This document shows, piece by piece, positions 4,438 through 43,829 of a DNA stretch of 64,000 nucleotides. Source of the DNA: an uncultured Candidatus Peribacteria bacterium (GTDB taxonomy: Bacteria; Patescibacteriota; Gracilibacteria; UM-FILTER-43-11); the NCBI GenBank assembly GCA_964458485.1, contig CAYWJA010000003.1, positions 30,524 through 94,523 of the forward strand. The letters run 5' to 3'. Position 1 is the first letter of the stretch. Each line of letters opens with the position of its first letter. The translations under genes were made by a program, and so were the position numbers. The notes under the pieces were generated by a model, which saw only the letters and a list, made by a program, of their open reading frames with translations, ran no database searches and was not told the origin of the DNA.

Positions 4438-7400
4438 TTATTTAGTTGGTATTGTTGGTATTTTTGGAGATGAAGTAGTCTTAATAACAGTCCCACCGGC
4501 TGGCACAGATGTTGTAGGTACTGTTGAATCTGGTGTCTTTTTTATAGGTTTTAATACCTGACCAGATGTTGTTGTAGTGGTAGTTGTTGTACTTGCGCTA
4601 GATGCTGCAGATGAACTTGTGGTTTTGCCCGTACTATATGTTTTTCCATACATCGCAGAGAACATCGTAAAGTCTATAAAATCTACTTTTCCATCACCAT
4701 TAAAATCTCCCTGCATAGTAGTGGCCGCCTTTTTAACTGCACTAACATTTACAGCCTTAAAGAATTTTGCAACCGGAGCCTTCATTTTAACTCCTCCGGC
4801 AGAAGCAATATTTTTTATTTGTACACTATAACGCTTGCCAGATGTTTGAGTTGCAGTTTTTAAAATAATATCTTTACCTGTTTTTCCGAATGCAACTGAG
4901 TAAATAGGTAATTTTGTAGATGAATTTTCAGGGAATATTTCAAAATCATAACTGCCTCCATTCGAACTTGATGATTTACCAAGTTTTACACTTGAAGGCC
5001 TTAGTGGTTTCTGAAATTCAATTTCTACAGTATTAGAAGATGTAGCAGACACATAATGTACAACCGGCGGCCAAGTATTTGCTGTATACCCCTTAAAGAA
5101 TGCCTTAGTTGTTCCGGAAGAAAGAGAAATACCAGATGAATCTGTTATTTTGCCGCTGCCATTTACTGCATACTCAGTGCCTGACGTTTGACTTGCTGTA
5201 GTAAGGGTAACTATATTATTTGTTGCATTAATGGTGGCACCAATTACATTTAGAGTTTTACTTACGTTGTTCTTGTCGGTAATTGTAAATTCTTTACCAC
5301 TTGCTGATATTGTTGAAGATAATATTTCTTCATTAAATGTAACCTCAAGCTGTGTAGAAGACGTAGGAACTGCTGCTACAATTTTTGGAGGAGTACTGTC
5401 TGCTGTATAGCCTTTACTGTCTTTTACAATAACGGCAATTTTACCCCTTCCTACTTTTCCGCTTTTATCTGTAGCTACAACTTCGACATCGTAAGCTTTG
5501 GAGCTACCTAGTGTAGTTTTTGCAATAGTAACTCCGGATAGTACAAACCATTGGCCGGCACTTCCTTCTTTATAGCTCGGCTTCATACACACAATAGTTT
5601 TTGAATTTGTATTACATGCACTGCTAACAGATGATGAGCTACTGGTACTAGTACTGGTTTTAGATGAGCTTGTACCAATTCCTATACTACTTGCGCTAGT
5701 GGTAGTACTGGCTTGCTTAAAATCAGGTGGTGTTACAGCACCTAATTGTCCAATTTTAGAAAGATTTACAATTACTGATGACAAATCGCTATCATCATCA
5801 CGCACGAATGCATAAAGTGTAGTGGTTGTCTTGCCGTCGTTAATTGCAACTTTTGGAGATGTATATGATTTTGAAGAAAGAACTATTGGTGCATCTCCAA
5901 CTATTTTCGGATTGGCTAAGTCTAATTGTAAAATCATACTTGCTGTTGTGCCATTTGAATCTGTAGCAATAACCTGAATTTTATGGACACCATAAGTTGC
6001 TGTTTTTGGGGGAATAATTGCTTTTGATGAATAAAGCGCGCTTTTTGCAGTTTTAGAAGCAGTTGTGCTTGCTGTTAACGCGGTAGGTGTAATGCCCATT
6101 GAAGATGAATAAGCAACTACGCTAGTAATATCACTTATGCCACTAGAGTCGCTAACCATTGCATTTACAGTAAATGAAGTTTTTCCATCTCTTGCAATTC
6201 TTTTCCCTGGAGAAACGTAGCTATTTACACTATCAATTTTTGGTCCGGTTGCTGCAGCAGATACATTTACACTTATTGTTTTTGTAACACTTTCACCAGT
6301 GCTATCTGAAGCAGTAATTTTTACTGAATATGTTTTCTGCGTAGCAGTTGTAGGTATAGTGAATTTATCAGAAACATAAAATCCTGTTGTTTGTTCTGTC
6401 GGAGTACTGGCTGTTTTTGTAGTACTTGTAGTTGATGTAGATGCAGTAGTTGATGTAGATGCAGTAGCTGATTTCAATGTTACGAATCCGGCACCTAAAG
6501 CTCCTAAGTCTGCTACAACTGATTTAATAGTACCAATTCCATCAGTATCCGTAATTTTTGCAGAAATTGTTGCAGTAGTTTTACCGTCTGGCGGAATAGT
6601 AGTAGGGCTAATATATGCCTGATCTATCTTTGGTGCCACACTCTTGTAAATATCTTTAGTAACCATTAAAGAAACAGTACCTTTAACCGCCTCCGATCCT
6701 TTTTTAATTTCTACAGGCAATGCATATGCTGTAGTACTAGTTGGTGTGATTGTAGAAACTGTAGTTGTATATGTGTAATATTGTTGATTTTTTGGCTGAA
6801 TACCACTTGCCTTTGTTAAAAGTTGTGATTTATTACCACCAATTTGTGCAAGATTAATAATTGCACTATCTATATTATTCAAACCTACTTCATCTTCTAC
6901 AAGCACCCAGAAAGTCACCTTAGTTTTTCCATCTGGAGCTACTTTATAAGGTAATGCTTTGGAACTTGCAGATACAATTTTCATTTGTTTTTTAAGTCCG
7001 CTTACTACCAATGCCTTAGAAAAAGTTGTTGTTTCACTACTTTTGTTTATAAATTTAAGATCATAAACTCCTGCAGTAAAAGCCTTGGCAACTGTAAAGC
7101 TTAATGCTCCTGAACTTTGTTTGGCAATTTTTGCCTCTACAGTGCCAACAAGTACTTTCGTAACTGTATCTAAATTTGTACCAACTGCTACAACTGTTTT
7201 ATCAGCATCATTTGTAATAGTAGATGGAGTAACCTTAGTTACACTAATTGAAGCTGCTTTGTACCCAATAAAGTTCATTAAAGTATTATTTACCAATTTT
7301 AATCCACCTGAGTCTGTTACTCCGTTGAATCTGATAAAGTAATTTTTGTCTGCAATTAATTTAGGAAGTGTTACATTTATTGTTGTACCTGCTGTATCTA

Positions 7401-8664
7401 GTTCAGTTTTTACAAGTGTTACCTTTGCGGAAGAATTATCATAAATTTCTATATTTATAGGGGTGACTGTACTAGATGTAAGCGCTCCGCTAAAAGTTAA
7501 TGCTACATTTGTACTTGATTTTACAGTCACAGTTTTTAGCAATACATCACTAACATTAATACCATCTGGGTTTTGGTATCCATCGAATTTAACTATATTA
7601 TATTTTGAACCTAATGCTCCTGTTGTATTACCCGTTATATTTTTATTCTTTAAGGTTAATACATATTGCTGTCCCTTCTGTAAATCTGCACTTGTTTTTA
7701 AAATTACTGTTTTTTGATCATAGCCTGTAAATGTTAAATGGCCATATCCAGTTACTGCACTTGATATAGCTACAGGTGTATTTGTTGAACTATGAGTTAA
7801 TACATAATCTGCTGCATTACCAACATTAGTTAAAAGGTCGGAAAAACGAACAACTATATGATCTTTACTTAATGCTTCTGCATTAAAAGCCCGCAGGTTC
7901 GCCTTGCTGGTTAGCTTTAATGTTCCCGTATCTATACTAGTAAAAGTTTTACTTGTTTTATAAGGAATTGATCCTGCAGCTGCCTCAACTACTTCAACAT
8001 TGGAGGTTGTCATAGTAATGCTGCTGCCAGCAGTACCACTAACCTTTGTAGATAATTTTATAAGAGGTCTTGTATCGTCCTTTTTCAAATTAACTGCTTT
8101 ACTTGAAAAAAGAGATACTGTTACTTCTCCGTTTGTACTTGTATTTACACTTTTTAAATCTGCAGACTGAAATACTGTACCGGTTGTAGCATTACTATCG
8201 AATACAATTGAATTGGTATTAAAAGTAAGTGCGGTTACTGGGCTATATTTTAATTTAAATTTAATACTATGTAATTTTACATCTGAGGTAATTGCACTCT
8301 GCCTTAATTTAACTGCTATATTTCCACTATCTGCATGACCTGCTGTGTAACTTGGAATATATAAAGCTGCAGATCCTGCCGGAGCTTTTTTAACCTCCGT
8401 AAGAGCTGCCCTGAACAAACTTGGATTTGTGTAGCCAAGTACACCCACCGCGACCGCAAATACAGCTGCCACACTTATTAGTGCATATTTTATTTTTGGG
8501 ACTTGATACCATTTCGCCGGTTGTGATTCCGATTGGTGATCCATTGGTGATCCATTGGTGATCCCATCGGGGTTATTGTGATCATCCGTTTGAGTTCCCC
8601 CATTGGATCCCTCCATTGGATCTCCTACTGGATCCCCTATTGATTGTGTGTTTGTTTCGTCCAT
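4438..8664 (-). CDS. Giant surface protein (1408 aa): N-terminal TM anchor, cohesin-like module, many Ig-like repeats, dockerin/EF-hand-like loop near C-terminus
   Basis: TM YALISVAAVFAVAVGVLG followed by NPSLFRA. Repeated beta-rich ~90-aa units with Thr/Ser linkers. DFNGDGKVDFIDFTMF near the C-terminus. The first ~55 codons are encoded by a repeat hairpin (8529-8643). Confidence 0.8.
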   Translation of the reverse strand: MDETNTQSIGDPVGDPMEGSNGGTQTDDHNNPDGITNGSPMDHQSESQPAKWYQVPKIKYALISVAAVFAVAVGVLGYTNPSLFRAALTEVKKAPAGSAALYIPSYTAGHADSGNIAVKLRQSAITSDVKLHSIKFKLKYSPVTALTFNTNSIVFDSNATTGTVFQSADLKSVNTSTNGEVTVSLFSSKAVNLKKDDTRPLIKLSTKVSGTAGSSITMTTSNVEVVEAAAGSIPYKTSKTFTSIDTGTLKLTSKANLRAFNAEALSKDHIVVRFSDLLTNVGNAADYVLTHSSTNTPVAISSAVTGYGHLTFTGYDQKTVILKTSADLQKGQQYVLTLKNKNITGNTTGALGSKYNIVKFDGYQNPDGINVSDVLLKTVTVKSSTNVALTFSGALTSSTVTPINIEIYDNSSAKVTLVKTELDTAGTTINVTLPKLIADKNYFIRFNGVTDSGGLKLVNNTLMNFIGYKAASISVTKVTPSTITNDADKTVVAVGTNLDTVTKVLVGTVEAKIAKQSSGALSFTVAKAFTAGVYDLKFINKSSETTTFSKALVVSGLKKQMKIVSASSKALPYKVAPDGKTKVTFWVLVEDEVGLNNIDSAIINLAQIGGNKSQLLTKASGIQPKNQQYYTYTTTVSTITPTSTTAYALPVEIKKGSEAVKGTVSLMVTKDIYKSVAPKIDQAYISPTTIPPDGKTTATISAKITDTDGIGTIKSVVADLGALGAGFVTLKSATASTSTTASTSTTSTTKTASTPTEQTTGFYVSDKFTIPTTATQKTYSVKITASDSTGESVTKTISVNVSAAATGPKIDSVNSYVSPGKRIARDGKTSFTVNAMVSDSSGISDITSVVAYSSSMGITPTALTASTTASKTAKSALYSSKAIIPPKTATYGVHKIQVIATDSNGTTASMILQLDLANPKIVGDAPIVLSSKSYTSPKVAINDGKTTTTLYAFVRDDDSDLSSVIVNLSKIGQLGAVTPPDFKQASTTTSASSIGIGTSSSKTSTSTSSSSSVSSACNTNSKTIVCMKPSYKEGSAGQWFVLSGVTIAKTTLGSSKAYDVEVVATDKSGKVGRGKIAVIVKDSKGYTADSTPPKIVAAVPTSSTQLEVTFNEEILSSTISASGKEFTITDKNNVSKTLNVIGATINATNNIVTLTTASQTSGTEYAVNGSGKITDSSGISLSSGTTKAFFKGYTANTWPPVVHYVSATSSNTVEIEFQKPLRPSSVKLGKSSSSNGGSYDFEIFPENSSTKLPIYSVAFGKTGKDIILKTATQTSGKRYSVQIKNIASAGGVKMKAPVAKFFKAVNVSAVKKAATTMQGDFNGDGKVDFIDFTMFSAMYGKTYSTGKTTSSSAASSASTTTTTTTTSGQVLKPIKKTPDSTVPTTSVPAGGTVIKTTSSPKIPTIPTK
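8529..8643. repeat. ATTGGTGATCC-family hairpin inside the 5' coding end of the 1408-aa gene
   Basis: CCGATTGGTGATCCATTGGTGATCCATTGGTGATCCCATCGGGG ... CCCCCATTGGATCCCTCCATTGGATCTCCTACTGGATCCCCTATTG. Confidence 0.85.
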
Positions 8665-8714: not shown

Positions 8715-11700
8715 TTACTTATTTACTTTATTAAAAAGAACTGCAACGTCGATCATGTCGACATCTCCGTCACCGTCCATGTCCGCAGCCTGTTTTTGGG
8801 CTGCTGTAGCAGTTGGTAAATTACCTCCTGCAATCTGAAAAGCTATTAATGCGTCTATTGTTGTAATTTTTCCATCACCATCTACATCACCACTTGCCAC
8901 CTTACCTATATATATAGGCATTACAGCGCTTGTCACCTTTCCTGACTTATCAACTATTTGCAAAACTAATGTATAACTTCCATCCGCCATATTTGCATCA
9001 ACTGGAATTTGAACTGGAATTTCGTAAATTTTATAATACTTTGCAGTAGTTGTTGTACCTCCTCCAGAAGAAGGACTACTTGAAGATGAGCTGGAACTAC
9101 TTGAAGAACTGCTTGAACTTGAACTAGATGAACTTGAGCTACTTGAAGAACTGGATGTCCCACTAGTCGTTCCGCTACTCGCTGTTGTTACATTATTTAC
9201 ATGTGTAGTAGCTGTATACCAAACAGCGCTTTTATCATCTTTTATTGTCGGATAAGTTTTTTTCTCTGTTCTAACAATATAAGAATTGATCTGGTCAATG
9301 TCGGCAATTGTTTCCGGTGAAGTTACTTTTACACTCAATTTAACCTGCCCACCTTTCTCGGCAGGATTACTACCAATTCTTTTTATATAATCAATTATGG
9401 CTTTTGAAGACACCTCTACGGTTAATGTGTTAACACTATTAACCTTTGTCCCATCAGGCTTTGCTATCTGTACATATAAATTAGTAGTACCAGTTGTGTC
9501 GCCTTTTGCCAAAATGCCAGAAGTTAAATATTTGTTACTTAATTTGTTGGTAGGATTATATTTCCATGTAACGTCATTGAAATTTAATTCCTTCATGGAG
9601 CCATCTAGATATTTTCCAAGAATGCGCAATTTATAAGTTGAATTTGGATGCAATGCTAATTTGCTTTCTACAGCAGGGACAACTATCACCTCCCCGCTTG
9701 AGGTTGTAACATCCTCTAGAGAAATTGTGCTATCTGCAGGTGTTAATTTTAAAAGACCTGGTGTATTTGATACTTTTGTAACTTTAATAAATGGCTGACC
9801 ATTCAACTCACTCAGTGCATCGATTAATCCATCTTTTGTTGTAGCTTTGCCATCAGGATCATTTAATATAGCATTTATTTTGTCTTTTTCTGTTGTAGCT
9901 GTAGATGTGGAAGGTAGAGTAGGAATTATTTTTGTGGTACTTCCGATTGTTATTGTTGCACCTGCAGCCTTAGATGAATTAACCATAAGGTATGCACTTT
10001 TATATGCATTACTTTTATCCATTACATCTAATTTTGAGATTGTGTCTTTATGTAAGGTTAAAATAAGGCTCGACAAAGTACTGAATGCACTTTTTTCGCA
10101 TGCTAATTTTGTAGTTGTACTTTTAGATGACTTTCCGTAACCGTTTTTAGAATCACATACATCACATAATCCTGATGTGCCACCATATCCTGTATTGCAT
10201 TGACATTTTCCCGTTGTGGTGTTGTATTGCCCATATACACATTTTAGTAACGGAGCTTTTGCTTTTACCGTAACTAAACCTTGTCTAAAATTTATAGCAT
10301 TTTTTGTAGTTGCTGAGGCAGAAGTTGTATAATATGAATTTGACGTTGATTTTTCATCGGCGTCTATAAGAATCTTTGTACCATCTGCCAATCCAGACAA
10401 AATACTTGTTTGAATTCTAAACAATAAAGCATTATCAGCCACATTTTTAGCAACCGTAGGTTTAACCTTAAGAGTTATTGTATCTTTTCCGCTTAATGTA
10501 GTAGATAAAGTAGTAACTACTGTTTCTCCACTAAATATAGTATCTGGTGAATAATTATTAACAAAGGCATATTGACTCTGAGTAGCGGTCGAAACTGGCT
10601 TAAGTTTAATCTGCAGTTCTGTTAATCCTGTTATTGCCTGAGCTGCTTTCACATCTATATATCCTTTAGTGCCAGCCTCAGCTGTATAGTCTGCAGGGAT
10701 ATAAACATTACGCAATGGTGTAGATGTATCTGTGGAAACATTTTCTGTACCACCTTTAAATGTACTTGTGATTTTTGTGACGGGAGTAGCTGTCTTGGTT
10801 TTTAATGTACAAACTGAACTTTTTAATTCATAACCATCAAGACAAGTGGCACAATCCTTTTTCGGATCAAGATTGGAACCTGTAGCACAAGCAGTACATA
10901 CTGCTACACCCTTAGTAGCCTTACAAGTTCCTCCATTTTTCTTACATACATTAGATGTGGATGAACAAGGATCTGTAATACATTTATTAGAGGAATCTAA
11001 TACATAACCTGTACTACATTTACACTGACCTGTTGATGCATCACACGAGCTATTTGTATCACTACATGTAACTCCGTAACACTTATCTACAACACATGTT
11101 GGGTAGCCCTTAAAACCTGCACTACATTTGTCACATACGGTGGTTTTAGTGCCCGCATAACCAGTATTGCATGTACACTTGCCATCACTACAAGTGCCAT
11201 AACCACAGCTGATATTTTTACATGTGTCTATGGTTATTTGTCCTGATTTAAAACTTGGCGCACCTCCTATACCCCCAATCCCTAAATCAATATAAGACGA
11301 AGAAGATGCGGAGGTTGATATTTTTTTATTACGTATATATATAGTCTGTTTGTTTTTACTCTTATTGCTAACTGATACAAAAAGCTTAAACAATACATCA
11401 TTATCTTTGAACTCATATAATTTATTAAAAGGGCCAAATTCAACCGAATATTCGCCAATGCCAACATTAATTTTTTCACTTTCTTTTTCTAATTTTGCCC
11501 CTTTCTTATCAATCTTCCATATAGCATATTCGTCCGAAGAAATTATAAATGTCAATTTAAATGCTTTAACATTTTTTAAATTCCTTCCTGCTCTAACTTC
11601 CACATAATCAAAATCACCTGGTGCTGCAATATAATTTGGTATATAAAACATATCATCTATCTTTGATGTATCATTTGTGCCAAGTTGAAATTTATCGTAG

Positions 11701-12035
11701 CTACCAGTAGTTTTCCCAACAATTTGTGAGCCTCCTCTGGTTTGACTAGCTGTCGGATCTGTCGGTATAATTGGTGCAACACCTCTAGTATTTCTGGCAG
11801 CATCTATGGCTCTATCTTGCCCCTCTGCCGATTGTGGTCCACCAGCCCCCCCTTCCTCTTCCACTACGATTGCAGGAGCCCCTCTTCTACCTTCTCCAAT
11901 AGTTGCCTTAAACAAACTCGGATTCTTATAAGCCACAATGCTCAATGCAGTTACTACAACCACAACGAATACGGTTAGAATATTGCGCCATAGGTGGCTT
12001 GTTTTTTTGATTTCTGTTTGGTTTTCGTTTTCCAT
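8715..12035 (-). CDS. Giant surface protein (1106 aa): TM anchor, EGF-like Cys-rich region, cohesin-like modules, poly-Ser, C-terminal two-repeat dockerin
   Basis: TM ILTVFVVVVVTALSIVA followed by NPSLFKA. Cys-rich residues ~272-409 (CGYGTCSDGKCTCNTGYAG..QCKCSTGYVLD). 26-residue Ser run. C-terminus GDVDGDGKITTIDALIAF..ADMDGDGDVDMIDVAVLF matches the type-I dockerin duplicated Ca-binding pattern. Confidence 0.85.
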   Translation of the reverse strand: MENENQTEIKKTSHLWRNILTVFVVVVVTALSIVAYKNPSLFKATIGEGRRGAPAIVVEEEGGAGGPQSAEGQDRAIDAARNTRGVAPIIPTDPTASQTRGGSQIVGKTTGSYDKFQLGTNDTSKIDDMFYIPNYIAAPGDFDYVEVRAGRNLKNVKAFKLTFIISSDEYAIWKIDKKGAKLEKESEKINVGIGEYSVEFGPFNKLYEFKDNDVLFKLFVSVSNKSKNKQTIYIRNKKISTSASSSSYIDLGIGGIGGAPSFKSGQITIDTCKNISCGYGTCSDGKCTCNTGYAGTKTTVCDKCSAGFKGYPTCVVDKCYGVTCSDTNSSCDASTGQCKCSTGYVLDSSNKCITDPCSSTSNVCKKNGGTCKATKGVAVCTACATGSNLDPKKDCATCLDGYELKSSVCTLKTKTATPVTKITSTFKGGTENVSTDTSTPLRNVYIPADYTAEAGTKGYIDVKAAQAITGLTELQIKLKPVSTATQSQYAFVNNYSPDTIFSGETVVTTLSTTLSGKDTITLKVKPTVAKNVADNALLFRIQTSILSGLADGTKILIDADEKSTSNSYYTTSASATTKNAINFRQGLVTVKAKAPLLKCVYGQYNTTTGKCQCNTGYGGTSGLCDVCDSKNGYGKSSKSTTTKLACEKSAFSTLSSLILTLHKDTISKLDVMDKSNAYKSAYLMVNSSKAAGATITIGSTTKIIPTLPSTSTATTEKDKINAILNDPDGKATTKDGLIDALSELNGQPFIKVTKVSNTPGLLKLTPADSTISLEDVTTSSGEVIVVPAVESKLALHPNSTYKLRILGKYLDGSMKELNFNDVTWKYNPTNKLSNKYLTSGILAKGDTTGTTNLYVQIAKPDGTKVNSVNTLTVEVSSKAIIDYIKRIGSNPAEKGGQVKLSVKVTSPETIADIDQINSYIVRTEKKTYPTIKDDKSAVWYTATTHVNNVTTASSGTTSGTSSSSSSSSSSSSSSSSSSSSSSSSSSSPSSGGGTTTTAKYYKIYEIPVQIPVDANMADGSYTLVLQIVDKSGKVTSAVMPIYIGKVASGDVDGDGKITTIDALIAFQIAGGNLPTATAAQKQAADMDGDGDVDMIDVAVLFNKVNK

Positions 12036-13622: not shown

Positions 13623-13643
13623 TCCGGGATGACAAATAGTGAA
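13623..13643. mobile_element. Solo right-end fragment of the MITE-like family
   Basis: TCCGGGATGACAAATAGTGAA shares GGGATGACAAATAGTGAA with the right end of copy c (18714-18734). Confidence 0.5.
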
Positions 13644-13737
13644 GCGATACTCCATTCAAAATAGGATGAAAATTATAGAGACAAATTTGCTTTTCCTCCC
13701 TGTTCATGCTATAATAAAGGGATATATTTGTATCTAT

Positions 13738-16341
13738 ATGCAAAGTAAAACAAAAAACATATTTAAAAAAATTGCGTTTTCACTGCTTTTTGCGGGAATA
13801 TTATGTATTCCAAATTTTGTAATGGCTGCTAGTGATCCTGGTGTTAAAAAATTAACAATTACACCAGATAAGCCAGGGCCTGGAGAATCAACAACCTTTG
13901 TGGCTACTTATGCAAACGAAGGCAATGCAAAATCCGGCAAGGTTGAACTGACAATCGATTACAATGAAAATATTTTTGAAAAAATTTCATTAAATGATTC
14001 AAAAAATTGTATCGACACAAAATTTACTGTTTATTGTACATTCGACAAATTACCCGCAAATTATACAAATACCATTAGCTTCAAGGCATCCGTAAAGTCA
14101 GCCGTAATAGTTGGTACTAAGTCTTTAGCAATTGCGCGAATAGATGATGTAAATAATCCAAATGACAATATCAAAAATAATTCCGCAAGTGCCACAACTA
14201 CTATTGCCCCAATGTCCAGCGGGAAAATATCTCAGGCGGGTCTCCCGGCGGCACTTGGATTAACAAAAAGTGTTAAATTAGAAAAGCCTTCTAAAAATCA
14301 GGGAGTTGCTGTTTTTGATGTAACAAATAATAAAAACTGGAAAACAAGCGGTCTTTTTACAACCGGTTTAAAGTTTATGATACGGGGTAAGGAAGCTTTG
14401 GCATGGACACTGGGTATTAGTGACGGTGGTTTTCATAATCCTGCGATAAAAAGCAGTTATTTAAAAGTTCTTACAATTGTTAATAGCTTGTTTATAATCG
14501 GACTTCTTGCGATCGCTGGCATGTGGATGTTTAGTATTTTGATTCCGAGAGCGTATTTAAAGCGAGTCGTATTAATTTATGGAATGGCTGTAATTTTTGT
14601 GAATTTCGCACTGCCGATGAATCAGCTTTTGATAGATACAACAAATCTTCTGCAAAAGACATTTATGGATGGTGTAAAGATTACAAATATTGTGGAAATT
14701 CCGAGTTATAACGATAAAAAAGCTGTTGGTTATCAGAATGAAACTGGTTTTCTTAAAAAAGCGGATACCAGCAAGCTTACATTCAATTTGAGTGATCCTA
14801 AAGTTGCGGCAAGTAGTACGTCGACAAAATCGACAGTAGCCGGTGCAGGTGCAAAAACTAAAACTACTACACCCACAATTACTGTCAAACCGACTAGTAT
14901 TAGTGTTGGGAAAATTACCCAGGATCCTTCAAAAACAAGTTTTATCGGTAATATAAAAAGTTCTAAAACAGCTGAGACAATTTCTTTATCTACTTATGGT
15001 AATGACCCGGAAATTAAATTAAACGCCAGCCAGAATGTTGAACTTATCAATTCAAATAAATTTAACCCAGACCAGGAACATTCAATTTTTGCTTTTGTAA
15101 TGATGATTCTTACGAGCCTTGCCTACTTTGGAATGGCATTAGTTCTAATATTACGGATCGTGATCTTATGGGCACTAATGATTGTATCTCCGGCACTATT
15201 CCTTCTAATAATCTTCCGTGCAACCCGTAGTTATTTTGTAAATTGGCTTGGGCTTTATGCAAGATGGTTACTAATTGGCCCACTAATGGCACTTGGAATT
15301 GCGGTTGTTGTGAACATATGGAAAACAACAGGACTGCCTATCACTAGTTCATATTCCGGAGGGCAGTTTGGTGTGTTTACTAATATCGGATTCTTTTTGC
15401 CTGGCAAAGATACAGCTAATACACTGAGTACAACGGGGCAAATGATGGAATATATTTTGTTTTTGATAATGCTATATCTGCCGATAATATTTGCATTTAT
15501 GCTAACCAGGCAAAAAACATGGGCTGGAGCACTTTCTACTATTATTAATAAAAAAGGTGCTGTGCAAAAGCCAATGGAGGATCCAATGGGAGGATCCAAT
15601 GGGAGGATCCAATCGGGGCAAGAAGGTAAAGAAGAATCTAAAGCTACATCTTTCACTCAAGATATTAAAGGATTTTTGAATGATAAATTTACAAAAACCA
15701 CTGCAACAGCAATACCTGGTAATATGAGAGGTGGTGATGTTACATCAGGTACCATTGCTACAGGAGAATCCAAACCTAAGATAGAAAATGCTGGACATTT
15801 TTTACCGGAAAATTTAGAAAAATCTGATATGAAGAGTATGGTTAATCTTGCATCAGGTGATAAAGGATCTCGCAATTCACATCAAAAAGCTATTGAAAAG
15901 TTAGCAAAGCCACAAAGTATTATAGACCCACAGGAAAGAAAAAAGGTTAGTGCGGTCAAAGAGGAAATTGGCAAACGTGCAGAACAAGGTGATGTGGAGG
16001 CTATACGTGTAATGGGGGAAATTAGTCAAGCTGAACAAAGTCCAGTAGGTGGATCCAATCGGGAATCCGTTGGGGACCCAGTTGGGGTAAGTACCGAAAT
16101 TGTAAAAGAAAAGGAGATAATTAAGGAAGAAAAACCCGAAAAAGATACGGCACAAACGTCAGGTGGTGCCGTAGGGGACGCACATGTGCGTCCTGATGAT
16201 ATGAAAAAAATAAATAAACCAAATGATGATGAAGATTCTGACGAAGATGCTGTAGATCCGCAACACGATGCGGATACAGATAAGGAGGACGAAGATGAAT
16301 CTGATGAGATAAAAGAGGAAAGGAAAAGTCGTCGCAAGTAG
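13738..16341 (+). CDS. Polytopic membrane protein, VirB6/TrbL-like candidate, with N-terminal beta-sandwich domain and long acidic C-terminal tail
   Basis: The ORF track starts at GTG 13639, inside a MITE fragment. ATG 13738 gives a normal signal peptide (MQSKTKNIFKKIAFSLLFAGILCIPNFVMAAS). About 6 further TM helices. It sits directly upstream of three pilin-module genes. The tail contains repeat-derived segments. Confidence 0.6.
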   Translation: MQSKTKNIFKKIAFSLLFAGILCIPNFVMAASDPGVKKLTITPDKPGPGESTTFVATYANEGNAKSGKVELTIDYNENIFEKISLNDSKNCIDTKFTVYCTFDKLPANYTNTISFKASVKSAVIVGTKSLAIARIDDVNNPNDNIKNNSASATTTIAPMSSGKISQAGLPAALGLTKSVKLEKPSKNQGVAVFDVTNNKNWKTSGLFTTGLKFMIRGKEALAWTLGISDGGFHNPAIKSSYLKVLTIVNSLFIIGLLAIAGMWMFSILIPRAYLKRVVLIYGMAVIFVNFALPMNQLLIDTTNLLQKTFMDGVKITNIVEIPSYNDKKAVGYQNETGFLKKADTSKLTFNLSDPKVAASSTSTKSTVAGAGAKTKTTTPTITVKPTSISVGKITQDPSKTSFIGNIKSSKTAETISLSTYGNDPEIKLNASQNVELINSNKFNPDQEHSIFAFVMMILTSLAYFGMALVLILRIVILWALMIVSPALFLLIIFRATRSYFVNWLGLYARWLLIGPLMALGIAVVVNIWKTTGLPITSSYSGGQFGVFTNIGFFLPGKDTANTLSTTGQMMEYILFLIMLYLPIIFAFMLTRQKTWAGALSTIINKKGAVQKPMEDPMGGSNGRIQSGQEGKEESKATSFTQDIKGFLNDKFTKTTATAIPGNMRGGDVTSGTIATGESKPKIENAGHFLPENLEKSDMKSMVNLASGDKGSRNSHQKAIEKLAKPQSIIDPQERKKVSAVKEEIGKRAEQGDVEAIRVMGEISQAEQSPVGGSNRESVGDPVGVSTEIVKEKEIIKEEKPEKDTAQTSGGAVGDAHVRPDDMKKINKPNDDEDSDEDAVDPQHDADTDKEDEDESDEIKEERKSRRK
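15571..15618. repeat. GGATCCAAT-type repeat arm inside the VirB6-like CDS
   Basis: CCAATGGAGGATCCAATGGGAGGATCCAATGGGAGGATCCAATCGGGG, translated PMEDPMGGSNGRIQSG. Confidence 0.8.
16042..16088. repeat. Second GGATCCAAT-type repeat arm inside the VirB6-like CDS (same orientation)
   Basis: CCAGTAGGTGGATCCAATCGGGAATCCGTTGGGGACCCAGTTGGGG, translated PVGGSNRESVGDPVG. Confidence 0.75.
16171..16193. repeat. GTAGGGGACGCA-CATG-TGCGTCC palindrome, in frame in the VirB6-like CDS
   Basis: Variant of the GGACGCAGATCTGCGTCC family with a CATG centre. Encodes VGDAHVRP. Confidence 0.8.
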
Positions 16342-41031: not shown

Positions 41032-41050
41032 TTTTTCATTCTAAAATACT

Positions 41051-41242
41051 GTTTTGTCATCCTGAACTTGGTTCAGGATCCATAATAATGGAGTTATGGT
41101 TGTATTACTATAATACTTATAATCTTATTCTCCGATATGCGATTAATAGTTTTGTATATACCGAAAAACCGATAATAAGTAAATCAGTTATAATATAATA
41201 CATCAATCACATGGATCCCGCATCAAGTGCGGGATGACAAAC
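41051..41242. mobile_element. MITE-like element, copy e (192 bp)
   Basis: GTTTTGTCATCCTGAACTTGGTTCAGGATCC ... GGATCCCGCATCAAGTGCGGGATGACAAAC. Core aligns with copy a. Confidence 0.8.
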
Positions 41243-41318
41243 GGATTATTATCCTCTTATCTCTCAAACATTCAATTGCACTTATCCCCTCTTTGGGGTA
41301 AACTATTTCAGCCTGATT

Positions 41319-41436
41319 CCAATTGGAGGTCCTATAGAGGACCCAATAGAGGACCCAATAGAGGACCCAATAATTGATAATTAATTAAATGTTCAATTGG
41401 GTCACCAATCGGGTCACCAATCGGGTCACCAATTGG
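41319..41436. repeat. Tandem-repeat-armed hairpin (AATAGAGGACCC x3 / GGGTCACCAATC x3)
   Basis: CCAATTGGAGGTCCTATAGAGGACCCAATAGAGGACCCAATAGAGGACCCAATAATTG...CAATTGGGTCACCAATCGGGTCACCAATCGGGTCACCAATTGG. Confidence 0.85.
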
Positions 41437-41468
41437 ATATTTCAATTATATAAAATTAAATAAGAAGT

Positions 41469-43829
41469 ATGTTTAGTAAAATTTCAAAAAGTCTGGTTTT
41501 AATAATCATCGCCAGCATATTCATGGGGGCTATTTCCCTCCCTGGTTCTGTTAAATCTAAATTACCAAACCACAAAGCATTTAATTGGCTAAAAAACCCC
41601 AAGGTTACACTCGGTTTGGATCTGCAAGGTGGTACGCAATTGGACTATAGAATTGATCTTAGGAATGCAGAAGCTAAAAATAAAGATGATGACAAAAGTA
41701 ATGATGTGCGAATTAAAGATATTGTGGAGGGTGTGCGCGCAACCATTGAAAGACGTGTAAACGGTCTTGGTGTTTCTGAGCCGCAAATTTATTTGTCTAA
41801 TATTGCTGATGAACAGCATATTATTGTGGAGTTAGCAGGAATAAAGGATGTTAATAAGGCTAAGTCTATTGTTGGCAAAACAATCCAGTTAGAATTCAAA
41901 GAAAAAAAGACTGAAATGGATGCAGGCGAAAAAGATAAGGTAAAAAAAGAAGCGGAAGCCACTTTAAAAAAGGTACTTGCCAAAAATGCTGATTTTACGA
42001 AAATCGGAAAAAGCACTGCAACTTCTGATAAAAAAATCCAGTTCTTTGTCAATAAAACGAAGTATGAATCCGATATCCCATCTCATTACAAAGATGTACT
42101 TTCTAAATTAAAAGAAGATCAGATTCATAAAAAAATAGTGGAGGGTAGTGATGGTTATATGGTTGGGGCCAATAATCAACTCCAAAAGAAGGTGGGGATG
42201 TTTATTGTTCAGCTTGTTAAAGCTGAAGTAAAAGACCGCACACAAAAAAAGAAACCTACATTTAGTGAAATTGCAAAGGAATTAAATACTAAACTTGAAA
42301 CATTAAATGACAAACCTGCATCAGCATTTACAGACGGTGAGGCTGAGGCTGTTTGGAAAATGACTGAAACCGGTGCAGATAACAAGACAAAGCCTCTTGA
42401 GGTTAAAGATGAACTAAGGGTATATAAACTTATAAAACATAATAAGGGTGAGAAAGAGATAAAGGCAAGCCATATCCTTATTGCATACAAAGGTGCACAG
42501 AGGGCTGATGCTAAAGTTACACGTACTAAAGCTGAAGCTGACAAAAAGGTCAAAGAAGTATATATACAGGCAAATAAAGATCCTAGTAAGTTTGCAGAAC
42601 TTGCTAAAAAACATTCTGACGGTCCATCTGCCAGCAAAGGTGGTGATTTAGGATTCTTTGGCAAAGGAAAAATGACTAAGGCGTTTGAAAATGCTGCATT
42701 TGCAAGAAAAAAAGGTGAAATTGCTCAAATAACTGAAACTGAATTTGGATATCACATTATTAAAGTTACCGATACAAAACCTCCAAAAGATGAAACTGTG
42801 AATTTAGAACTTCTTAAACTTAAAAAGTCTGATGAAAATAAGAAAAAATTAGAAGCAGGTTTAAAAAAGATTAAAGAAGGTTATGACGTTACTACCAAGG
42901 AAAAGGAATATAAATATAATGAAATTTATTTCGATATGACACCGGATCCATGGAAATCAACAGGACTTGATGGATCTCATTTTAAGTTTGCATCTGTAAC
43001 TTATAATCAAATCGGATCCCCGGAGGTTAGTATTAGATTTGATAGCAAAGGTGGAGACATGTTTGAAAAAATAACAGGCCGTTTGGTTGGTCAGCCTTTG
43101 GCTATTTTTGTAGGAGGGCAACTTATTTCTGCTCCAAATGTTAATGGTAAAATTTCTGGTGGAAGTGCTGTAATTACGGGTAATTATAATATTAAAGAAG
43201 CTATGCAGCTAGCAAACGACTTAAATACCGGTGCCATAGATGCCCCTGTAATACTTTCCGGTCAATATACTATTAGTGCCACACTTGGAGAAAGCGCATT
43301 ACGCGTTTCTTTAATCGCCGGCTTGCTCGGTTTAATTGTTTTGGCACTATATATGATTGTTTATTATCGTATTTTTGGACTATTTGCAGTTTTTGCGCTA
43401 CTAATTTATTCAATCATTATTATGTTCATTTTAAATACAACAGGTATTGTAATGACGCTCGCTGGTATTGCAGGAATTATCCTTTCTATAGGTATGGCGG
43501 TTGATGCAAATATTCTGATTTTTGAAAGAACGAAGGAAGAATTAAATACCGGAAAAAACTTCTCAGCTTCTATCACAGCTGGTTTTGAAAGGGCATGGTC
43601 TTCTATTCGAGATTCTAATGTTTCTTCTTTAATTACATGCGCGATTTTATGGTTTTTTGGCAATTCGATTATCCGCGGATTTGCTTTGATGCTTGCTATT
43701 GGTATTTTGATTTCAATGTTTACAGCAATTACCATTACCCGCAAATTCCTTCAATCCCTAACCGGTACTTCGCTTTCTAAAAAACGCTGGCTTTTGGGGG
43801 TTAAGAAGGTTGAGACAATAAATCGATAG
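41469..43829 (+). CDS. secD: Protein translocase subunit SecD carrying a ~335-aa PrsA/SurA-like insertion with a parvulin PPIase domain
   Basis: SecD hallmarks [45 protein letters not shown] and the C-terminal TM bundle ..[20 protein letters not shown]. Residues ~331-435 are parvulin-like ([38 protein letters not shown]). No secF follows. Confidence 0.85.

Follow-up and report, generated by a model that had tools for sequence, protein, structure and literature searches.

SecDF is driven by the proton motive force (PMF), and the head of its extracytoplasmic P1 domain has an amphiphilic cavity which binds the emerging precursor (PMC8082313, PMC5974789). This head rotates between the F and the I form, drawing the substrate from SecYEG (PMC8082313, PMC5974789). 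The hand-over of the chain from SecYEG to the extracytoplasmic folding factors is only partly understood, and the evidence from model bacteria consists of weak, transient contacts. SurA binds the holo-translocon, the periplasmic domains of SecDF having been proposed as its recruiting site (PMC9987972), PpiD-YfgM binds SecYEG (PMC9643414), and in Mycoplasma pneumoniae the parvulin lipoprotein Mpn444 cross-links to SecD (bioRxiv 10.1101/2024.09.05.611430). Here, a secD gene is described in which a peptidyl-prolyl isomerase (PPIase) of the parvulin family lies within the P1 domain itself. It was found in a stretch of 64,000 nucleotides (the window) of contig CAYWJA010000003.1, from an uncultured Candidatus Peribacteria bacterium of the candidate phyla radiation (CPR). 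In a literature search, neither a SecD-parvulin fusion nor a circularly permuted parvulin was found described, and the public databases name the homologous proteins only 'SecD'.

SecD identity and position of the insert

The gene encodes a protein of 786 amino acids (aa), whose features are collected in Table 1. The NCBIfam model for secD, TIGR01129 (equivalog-domain), matched it with 359.7 bits (cut-off 244.4), the match being divided into two stretches by the insert. Together with the Pfam matches to SecD_1st, SecDF_P1_head and SecD_SecF_C, this confirmed the SecD identity that had been proposed in a first-pass annotation of the window. The full-length SecDF models of NCBIfam each stayed far under their own cut-off, because the SecD architecture of the protein is atypical. 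The ATG at 41469 was favoured as the start codon, since homologues of 781 aa align from residue 1. A non-coding gap of 437 bp (window 41032-41468) lies 5' of the gene.

An N-terminal transmembrane (TM) helix, an extracytoplasmic P1 base and head, and five C-terminal TM helices were all recovered, from the Pfam domains and from the helices at aa 7-22 and 608-763 of the AlphaFold2 (AF2) model. When this model was submitted to Foldseek, SecDF structures were the top matches, among them 5yhf and 5xan. The motif around D679 aligned to GAAVDGNVLSFER of the Thermus thermophilus protein (TtSecDF), placing D679 at the Asp of GAAVDGN, and the residue was invariant in 121 of 121 sequences. By this alignment D679 is the counterpart of D340 of TtSecDF, the essential TM4 aspartate on the proton path (PMC5974789). 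In profile match, topology, TM4 aspartate and possession of a SecF partner the protein thus agrees with SecD at every point checked. As judged from its sequence it is a genuine, functional SecD, which with its separate SecF should form a proton-driven SecDF export motor.

In the alignment to T. thermophilus SecDF (3aqp), residues 29-119 were paired with 42-147 of the query and residues 159-437 with 499-775. Between the two blocks, from SecD_1st with its conserved final strand IQLEFKE to the P1 head, the window's protein carries an insert of about 350 residues (aa 148-497), where Thermus has 39. These boundaries agree with the first-pass annotation, in which the insert had been placed inside P1 at aa 145-480 (nt 41901-42908). 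The possibility raised there that the insert replaces the P1 head was ruled out, as the head follows it intact (Table 1). The segment from the LEFK strand to the head varies in length among known SecDs, and the conserved head begins at about residue 159 in Thermus and at about residue 324 in the Escherichia coli SecD chain 5mg3_D. The cassette therefore occupies a naturally insertion-tolerant site. TM1, SecD_1st, the P1 head, TM2-6, the TM4 Asp and the motifs of the partner SecF are common to the window's protein and the SecD or SecDF of T. thermophilus and Deinococcus radiodurans (3AQP, 5YHF, 5XAN/5XAM) and of E. coli (5MG3). In contrast, the approximately 350 residues of parvulin-fold modules are present in the window's SecD only, and no solved SecDF has a foldase domain.

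Canonical parvulin domain

The insert contains a canonical parvulin domain. The Rotamase profile (PF00639) matched aa 335-435 over its positions 1-97 with an E-value of 1.1e-28 (100.4 bits), and Rotamase_3 (PF13616) matched aa 317-436 with an E-value of 2e-30 (106 bits). A complete parvulin had been reported at nt 42459-42773, which corresponds to aa 331-435, and these matches bear this out. The opposite case considered in the first-pass annotation, an ordinary P1 head that gives no rotamase match, is refuted by the same result. In Foldseek, the PPIase domains of PrsA and Pin1 matched the canonical module with TM-scores of 0.83-0.89 and root-mean-square deviations (rmsd) of 1.9-2.8 Å. Superposition on the AF2 model of the insert gave TM-scores of 0.83 for the PPIase domain of Staphylococcus aureus PrsA, 0.89 for Bacillus anthracis PrsA and 0.85 for Pin1 (rmsd 2.0 Å).

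The tetrad formed by H335, D393, T424 and H429 is taken to be the equivalent of the H59-C113-T152-H157 network of Pin1, and M402 and F406 presumably form the proline pocket. The conservation of these residues was counted over 118 parvulin-bearing homologues (Table 1). The motif FGYHIIKV is that of the non-phospho-specific PpiC/PrsA type. The mean identity to the query was 69-77% for the SecD core and 54% for the canonical parvulin, falling to 34-38% in the degenerate modules described below. Profile, fold, catalytic network and hydrophobic pocket all correspond to those of a parvulin, and on these predictions the domain looks catalytically competent.

Flanking modules and their arrangement

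The region preceding the parvulin had been described as Lys/Glu-rich and helical, like the chaperone arms of PrsA, SurA or PpiD. This description did not hold. No family of the SurA_N type was matched in the protein or its flanks with Pfam, even at E-values up to 10, and the flanks of the canonical domain were α/β and parvulin-like, so that helical chaperone arms of the PrsA/SurA type were ruled out. Residues 148-326 gave a borderline Rotamase match (20.9 bits against a cut-off of 21.7, E-value 7e-4, profile positions 11-91). When compared with the canonical parvulin profile by hhalign, the first module, U1 (aa 148-261), aligned from α1 to β4 (probability 88-90%, E-values 1.5e-6 to 2.9e-6) and the middle module (aa 262-328) from α2 to β4 (probability 89-91%, E-values 9e-7 to 2e-6). 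The counterpart of U1 in two relatives, L010 and L018, exceeded the Rotamase cut-off. In both modules the order of secondary structure predicted by AF2 was that of a parvulin, DSSP assigning helix-helix-strand-helix-strand-strand to U1. On the basis of the borderline match, the hhalign results and the predicted α/β order, the flanks are therefore regarded as two degenerate parvulin-like modules. Only the innermost module (aa 329-440) retains the catalytic tetrad, and the outer two would be degenerate scaffolds.

The middle module appears to be completed from the other side of the catalytic domain. When aa 441-471 were set before it, the hhalign score increased from 36 to 44.7 (E-value 6e-8) and the alignment gained α1; with both segments in their native order, no gain was obtained. 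The AF2 model of the whole protein had a mean predicted local distance difference test (pLDDT) score of 86 and a predicted TM-score (pTM) of 0.47, while the insert alone reached 95 and 0.75, so that the three modules are predicted to form a single defined body. According to AF2 and DSSP, its inner part is bounded on either side by a strand of unusual length (aa 238-261 and aa 472-489), and the gaps within the strand pairs 315-325/330-338 and 427-437/443-452 are merely 4-5 residues long. Sequence order, DSSP and hhalign together suggest that the three parvulin folds are most likely nested, each inner one inserted in the β4-to-β1 hairpin of the outer one. Two-stranded β ribbons would then run through the domain borders and join the nested modules. 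Foldseek searches with the whole model or with the insert returned SecDF and canonical parvulin matches only, a type of search by which the degenerate modules are not separable.

Table 1. Coordinates of secD, its domains and residues, and other genes mentioned in the text. Nucleotide positions refer to the window unless a locus is given; residue counts refer to the 118 parvulin-bearing homologues.
Feature	Position	Strand	Evidence or remarks
secD	41469..43829	+	786 aa, carries the nested parvulin insert; open reading frame list and TIGR01129
TM1, N-terminal transmembrane helix (aa 7-24)	41487..41540	+	hydrophobic segment; AF2 helix aa 7-22; placed by homology to SecDF structures
SecD_1st, N-terminal part of P1 (aa 87-147)	41727..41909	+	PF21760, E 5e-16
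Module U1 (aa 148-261)	41910..42251	+	degenerate parvulin-like, without catalytic residues, ends in a 24-residue strand
Middle module (aa 262-328)	42252..42452	+	partial parvulin-like unit, α2 to β4; hhalign
Canonical parvulin PPIase domain (aa 329-440)	42453..42788	+	H335, D393, T424, H429; PF00639, PF13616, Foldseek
C module (aa 441-477)	42789..42899	+	strand and helix; DSSP strand 443-452, helix 455-470
Return strand into P1 head (aa 478-497)	42900..42959	+	DSSP strand 472-489; conserved in all length forms
SecDF P1 head subdomain (aa 498-591), retained	42960..43241	+	PF22599, 87 bits, E 1e-24
SecD TM2-TM6 (aa 600-763), including TM4 Asp D679	43266..43757	+	PF02355
H335			kept in 117/118
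D393			kept in 110/118; otherwise Q, E, N or S
M402 (substrate pocket)			kept in 116/118
F406 (substrate pocket)			kept in 118/118
T424			T or S in 118/118
H429			kept in 118/118
Cyclophilin, 215 aa	L034:1489-2136, contig C1	-	lipoprotein-type signal peptide MKKLLLITLGLSLIMLTSC; free candidate extracytoplasmic PPIase
AcrB/AcrD/AcrF-type resistance-nodulation-division (RND) transporter, 1087 aa, full-length	L036:2460-5723, contig C18	-	ACR_tran E 1e-176
1408-aa protein	4438-8664	-	DUF4625 match only
1106-aa protein	8715-12035	-	ends in a type I dockerin domain
900-aa protein	13639-16341	+	weak TrbL/VirB6 match

Comparison with other foldases

Among solved structures, the parvulin domains of PrsA, the membrane-anchored foldase of monoderm bacteria (Bacillus, Staphylococcus, Listeria), are some of the nearest to the catalytic module (2jzv, 45-46% identity, TM-score 0.83-0.85; also 6xd8). 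Both are extracytoplasmic at the Sec exit, and both have a non-phospho-specific active site of the FGYHII type. Unlike PrsA, however, the window's module has no helical N- or C-terminal chaperone domain, as seen from the lack of a SurA_N-type match, and no lipoprotein anchor; it is held by SecD itself and flanked by dead parvulin folds. The PrsA models of NCBIfam gave 67 bits against a cut-off of 361, and taken together the PrsA and SurA models gave 43-67 bits against cut-offs of 361-394, covering essentially the parvulin alone. An anchor or a periplasmic signal peptide of its own, as in the PrsA/SurA/PpiD type, was not found for the module, which is internal to SecD (aa 148-497). With neither a helical N- or C-terminal domain nor its own anchor, the cassette is, from its sequence, not a module of this type. 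It may work like a tethered PrsA, but it is not PrsA.

SurA and PpiD of E. coli resemble the window's protein in combining inactive and active parvulin folds at the translocon exit. Their association is non-covalent and depends on a helical core, whereas in the window's protein it is covalent and a helical core is missing; moreover, its parvulin folds appear nested instead of arranged like beads on a string. With Mpn444 and Mpn436 of M. pneumoniae, the window's protein shares a parvulin foldase that is physically with SecD in a wall-less or monoderm bacterium of reduced genome. The two mycoplasmal proteins are not domains of SecD; each is a surface lipoprotein in its own right, in which a PrsA-like chaperone domain and a propeller are also present.

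Occurrence among homologues

The 120 best database homologues were all annotated as SecD and have the insert, and all of them are from Peregrinibacteria or the 'Patescibacteria group'. In nearly all, the SecD and Rotamase domains of Pfam were found together. They originate from NCBI, JGI, ENA and Logan assemblies, on contigs of up to 1.3 Mb, and the identical protein is present on two contigs.

Among 151 genomes sampled from the same class, 107 gave a match when the insert was used as query, where a missing match does not prove absence because metagenome-assembled genomes (MAGs) are incomplete; about 100 of the matches were located in open frames of 550-1110 aa. All 13 genomes sampled from the window's own family gave a match, which in 11 of them was in a SecD-sized frame (687-801 aa) and in one in a frame of 417 aa. 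In a sample of 400 genomes of the phylum, parvulin matches outside the class mostly belonged to free genes (290-420 aa). Frames of 550-730 aa held matches in about 21 genomes, and several genomes had both kinds.

Relatives were also compared at 29 loci from species-representative genomes. These are named Peregrinibacteria, Peribacteria, Gracilibacteria, Parcubacteria, Moranbacteria or 'Patescibacteria group', with a few labelled otherwise. At every one of the 29 loci, the parvulin motif GYHII lies 210-270 residues upstream of the SecD motif GMAVDANI, in one frame. For three of them (L012, L021, L032) translation with genetic code 25 produced longer frames whose tails were nonsense, and the lengths obtained with code 11 were used. 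Nine records (L010, L013, L017, L022, L023, L025 and L031-L033) are labelled Gammaproteobacteria, Bdellovibrionales or Bathyarchaeia and carry a SecD-parvulin of the CPR type. These labels are probably wrong, because the genomes of L010, L023 and L025 have a size of only 0.7-1.3 Mb.

Length forms and evolution of the insert

Three length classes were distinguished in the alignment of the homologues. The long forms (about 780 aa), which the window's protein resembles, number 56 and the short forms (about 685 aa) 62; a further two or three proteins have about 667 aa. The short forms lack aa 262-328 and aa 441-477 jointly, i.e. the middle and C modules co-vary. In the forms of about 667 aa (P0088, P0098, P0106), the canonical parvulin was cleanly lost and everything else was kept, including the degenerate modules; the β4 strand of the middle module is joined to the strand VDVAVVTLAK via a short linker. 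Both kinds of natural variant fit the nested arrangement, since the short form would correspond to the protein minus both halves of the middle shell and the parvulin-less form to the protein minus exactly its core.

A FastTree of the SecD core was calculated for the 120 proteins with the insert columns removed. The length form was strongly clustered on this tree, with 7 changes as compared with about 42 when the labels were shuffled. Most of the short forms made up one clade within the long forms. The parvulin-less variants adjoined different long-form relatives, and at least two losses must therefore have taken place. The direction of length change is tentative, because only a midpoint root was used.

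Simpler arrangements were observed among the relatives. One-module forms (560-610 aa) have a single, circularly permuted parvulin, in which positions 17-109 of the hidden Markov model (HMM) come first and the β1 strand with the first catalytic His (SAHILI; SxHIL) comes after FGWHII; the Pfam Rotamase profile matched them at positions 14-96 only. Two-module forms (675-725 aa) gave two Rotamase matches in one SecD frame, covering positions 10-95 and then 1-95, and in L010 and L018 both of these were above the cut-off. A tandem duplication of the permuted unit would yield exactly this two-module pattern, in which leftovers of the outer unit surround a central domain of canonical order. In forms of 1050-1150 aa the same SecD is fused to SecF. 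Three of the fused proteins (L008, L009, L024) have an extra hydrophobic segment of about 50 aa with two putative TM helices upstream of GMAVDANI (TM4), which is absent from the window's protein.

The window's protein has the insertion site and the parvulin family in common with these simpler CPR fusions, both the Moranbacteria/Parcubacteria-type proteins of 560-610 aa and the two-module proteins of 675-725 aa. It differs in a third layer, consisting of the middle and C modules, so that the active domain reads in canonical order. The window adds to the series a three-tier form that typifies Peregrinibacteria/Peribacteria, a middle and a C half-module that vary together, and a fusion that holds the sole parvulin of its genome; in homologues of its protein the catalytic core was cleanly lost more than once.

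SecF and other isomerases of the genome

The first-pass annotation had stated that secF is not adjacent to secD, and indeed it was located on another contig (C19), beside gyrB, as a gene for a protein of 303 aa (PF02355, 210 bits). Its motifs HDTIVVFDRIREN and NQTLTRS aligned to NDSIIVSDRIREN and NQTLSRT of Deinococcus SecDF, so that the essential TM10 Asp and TM11 Arg are in place. A third SecD_SecF_C match, on contig C18, was considered as a possible insert-free SecDF paralogue and turned out to be an RND pump of the AcrB type.

Searches of the 92.7%-complete genome with Rotamase, Rotamase_2, Rotamase_3 and SurA_N_3 matched the SecD copy only. By these four HMMs there is no second parvulin, PpiD or SurA elsewhere in it, and SurA_N_3 likewise gave no N domain of the PrsA/SurA/PpiD type. 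The check for stand-alone prsA, ppiD or surA genes suggested in the first-pass annotation hence came out in favour of its expectation. The sole FKBP match of the genome was the trigger factor, which is cytoplasmic. Taking the cyclophilin of Table 1 into account, the SecD parvulin is, by profile searches, the only parvulin of the genome, and not its only candidate extracytoplasmic PPIase.

Discussion

The cassette is best explained as a built-in PrsA-like foldase/holdase tethered to the SecDF motor, the fusion making the contact with the translocon permanent; a probability of about 0.7 is assigned to this reading. It is favoured by the architecture and predicted fold of the insert, the conserved catalytic residues, the intact cores of SecD and SecF, the lineage-wide occurrence of the fusion, the lack of another parvulin in the genome and the non-covalent precedents cited above. 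The P1 domain has acquired the three-module parvulin cassette between the last strand of SecD_1st and the P1 head. During export, the head would capture the chain emerging from SecYEG and swing, and the PrsA-like catalytic domain, on its scaffold of two dead parvulin folds, would travel with or beside it. The tethered parvulin could thus receive the unfolded chain directly from the head, isomerise its prolines and limit aggregation. In this lineage, the cassette appears to stand in for a free parvulin chaperone.

Several observations weigh against this interpretation. With a full-length pTM of only 0.47, the AF2 model gives no reliable position for the cassette with respect to head, membrane and SecYEG, and the nesting was deduced from sequence order, DSSP and hhalign. 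About 10 homologues have Q, E, N or S in the place of D393. The natural parvulin-less variants show that the isomerase activity is dispensable in some lineages, and general needs for extracytoplasmic PPIase activity could be served by the lipoprotein cyclophilin.

An artefact has also been considered, namely that the frame is an assembly or gene-calling chimera of secD and a prsA-like gene. The fusion of two genes during assembly had been named in the first-pass annotation as an outcome that would overturn it, and the unusual length by itself would be compatible with it. Nevertheless, the parvulin is enclosed on both sides by SecD segments within a single frame, an identical protein occurs on two contigs, and more than 100 distinct, independent homologues from NCBI, JGI, ENA and Logan share the same order, as do 29 of 29 independent named MAG loci. 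These homologues and loci, together with the class-wide sample, exclude an assembly chimera, and the chance of an artefact of either kind is practically nil. A more serious competitor is a cassette that serves mainly as a structural or holdase extension of P1, i.e. as an arm, a surface for unfolded chains or a spacer in the cell-wall zone, with catalysis secondary or vestigial. In its favour, only one of the three modules has kept the catalytic residues, and on at least two occasions this module was lost from proteins in which the dead ones persist. A stalk is suggested by the long strands of the β ribbons (aa 238-261 and aa 472-489). Furthermore, the P1 domain of SurA and the parvulin domain of PpiD are inactive, and yet these proteins act as chaperones. 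On the other hand, tetrad and hydrophobic pocket are kept in at least 93% of the 118 parvulin-bearing homologues, and in mean identity the canonical module (54%) exceeds the dead ones (34-38%), unlike what would be expected for a mere spacer. A mainly structural or holdase role is thus unlikely, although it deserves some weight.

It is also conceivable that the parvulin acts on the machine itself, as a regulator which isomerises a proline of SecD, SecF or SecY or gates the F-to-I swing of the head. The insertion point between the last strand of SecD_1st and the mobile head is suggestive in this respect, as is the prediction of the insert as a rigid body (pTM 0.75). However, no conserved candidate for the target proline was identified, and other CPR lineages have free PrsA-like parvulins of about 350 aa, some genomes carrying free and fused forms, which points to a common role in client folding. 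In addition, parvulins that are not of the Pin1 type, such as PrsA and PpiC, are generalists. A regulator of the motor is accordingly quite improbable, and the tethered foldase/holdase remains the preferred explanation.

A more far-reaching version of the foldase interpretation can be formulated for this class of CPR bacteria as a whole. The free parvulin chaperone would have given way to a tower of parvulin folds, nested in three tiers and carried on the swinging, PMF-driven head of SecD. The tower would have arisen as a circularly permuted parvulin was repeatedly duplicated and inserted into its own β4-β1 hairpin, and the power stroke would feed chains to the prolyl isomerase. This proposal is put forward tentatively and is, on balance, rather doubtful. 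If it were true, it would describe a mechanically coupled export-folding machine, and would provide 'Rosetta-stone' evidence that parvulin chaperones dock on the SecDF P1 domains of all bacteria.

As a covalent link that is conserved widely, the SecD-parvulin fusion offers independent evolutionary evidence that P1 and the parvulin foldases share their substrate at the same moment. At the same time, it presents the hand-over to structural and biochemical work in the form of one stable polypeptide chain. The series from one permuted parvulin to two and three modules, with occasional clean loss of the core, is a natural example of circular permutation, nesting and modular loss. With regard to CPR biology, it illustrates how reduced genomes consolidate functions of envelope biogenesis.

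Other genes of the window and the genome

Three large, poorly annotated proteins are encoded in the window at 4438-8664 (-), 8715-12035 (-) and 13639-16341 (+) (Table 1). They are probably the giant surface proteins mentioned in the first-pass annotation, where the cassette was thought to be useful for the export of giant β-rich surface proteins; a tie between the two is pure speculation. The RND pump of the AcrB type is encoded in a CPR genome of 1.6 Mb.

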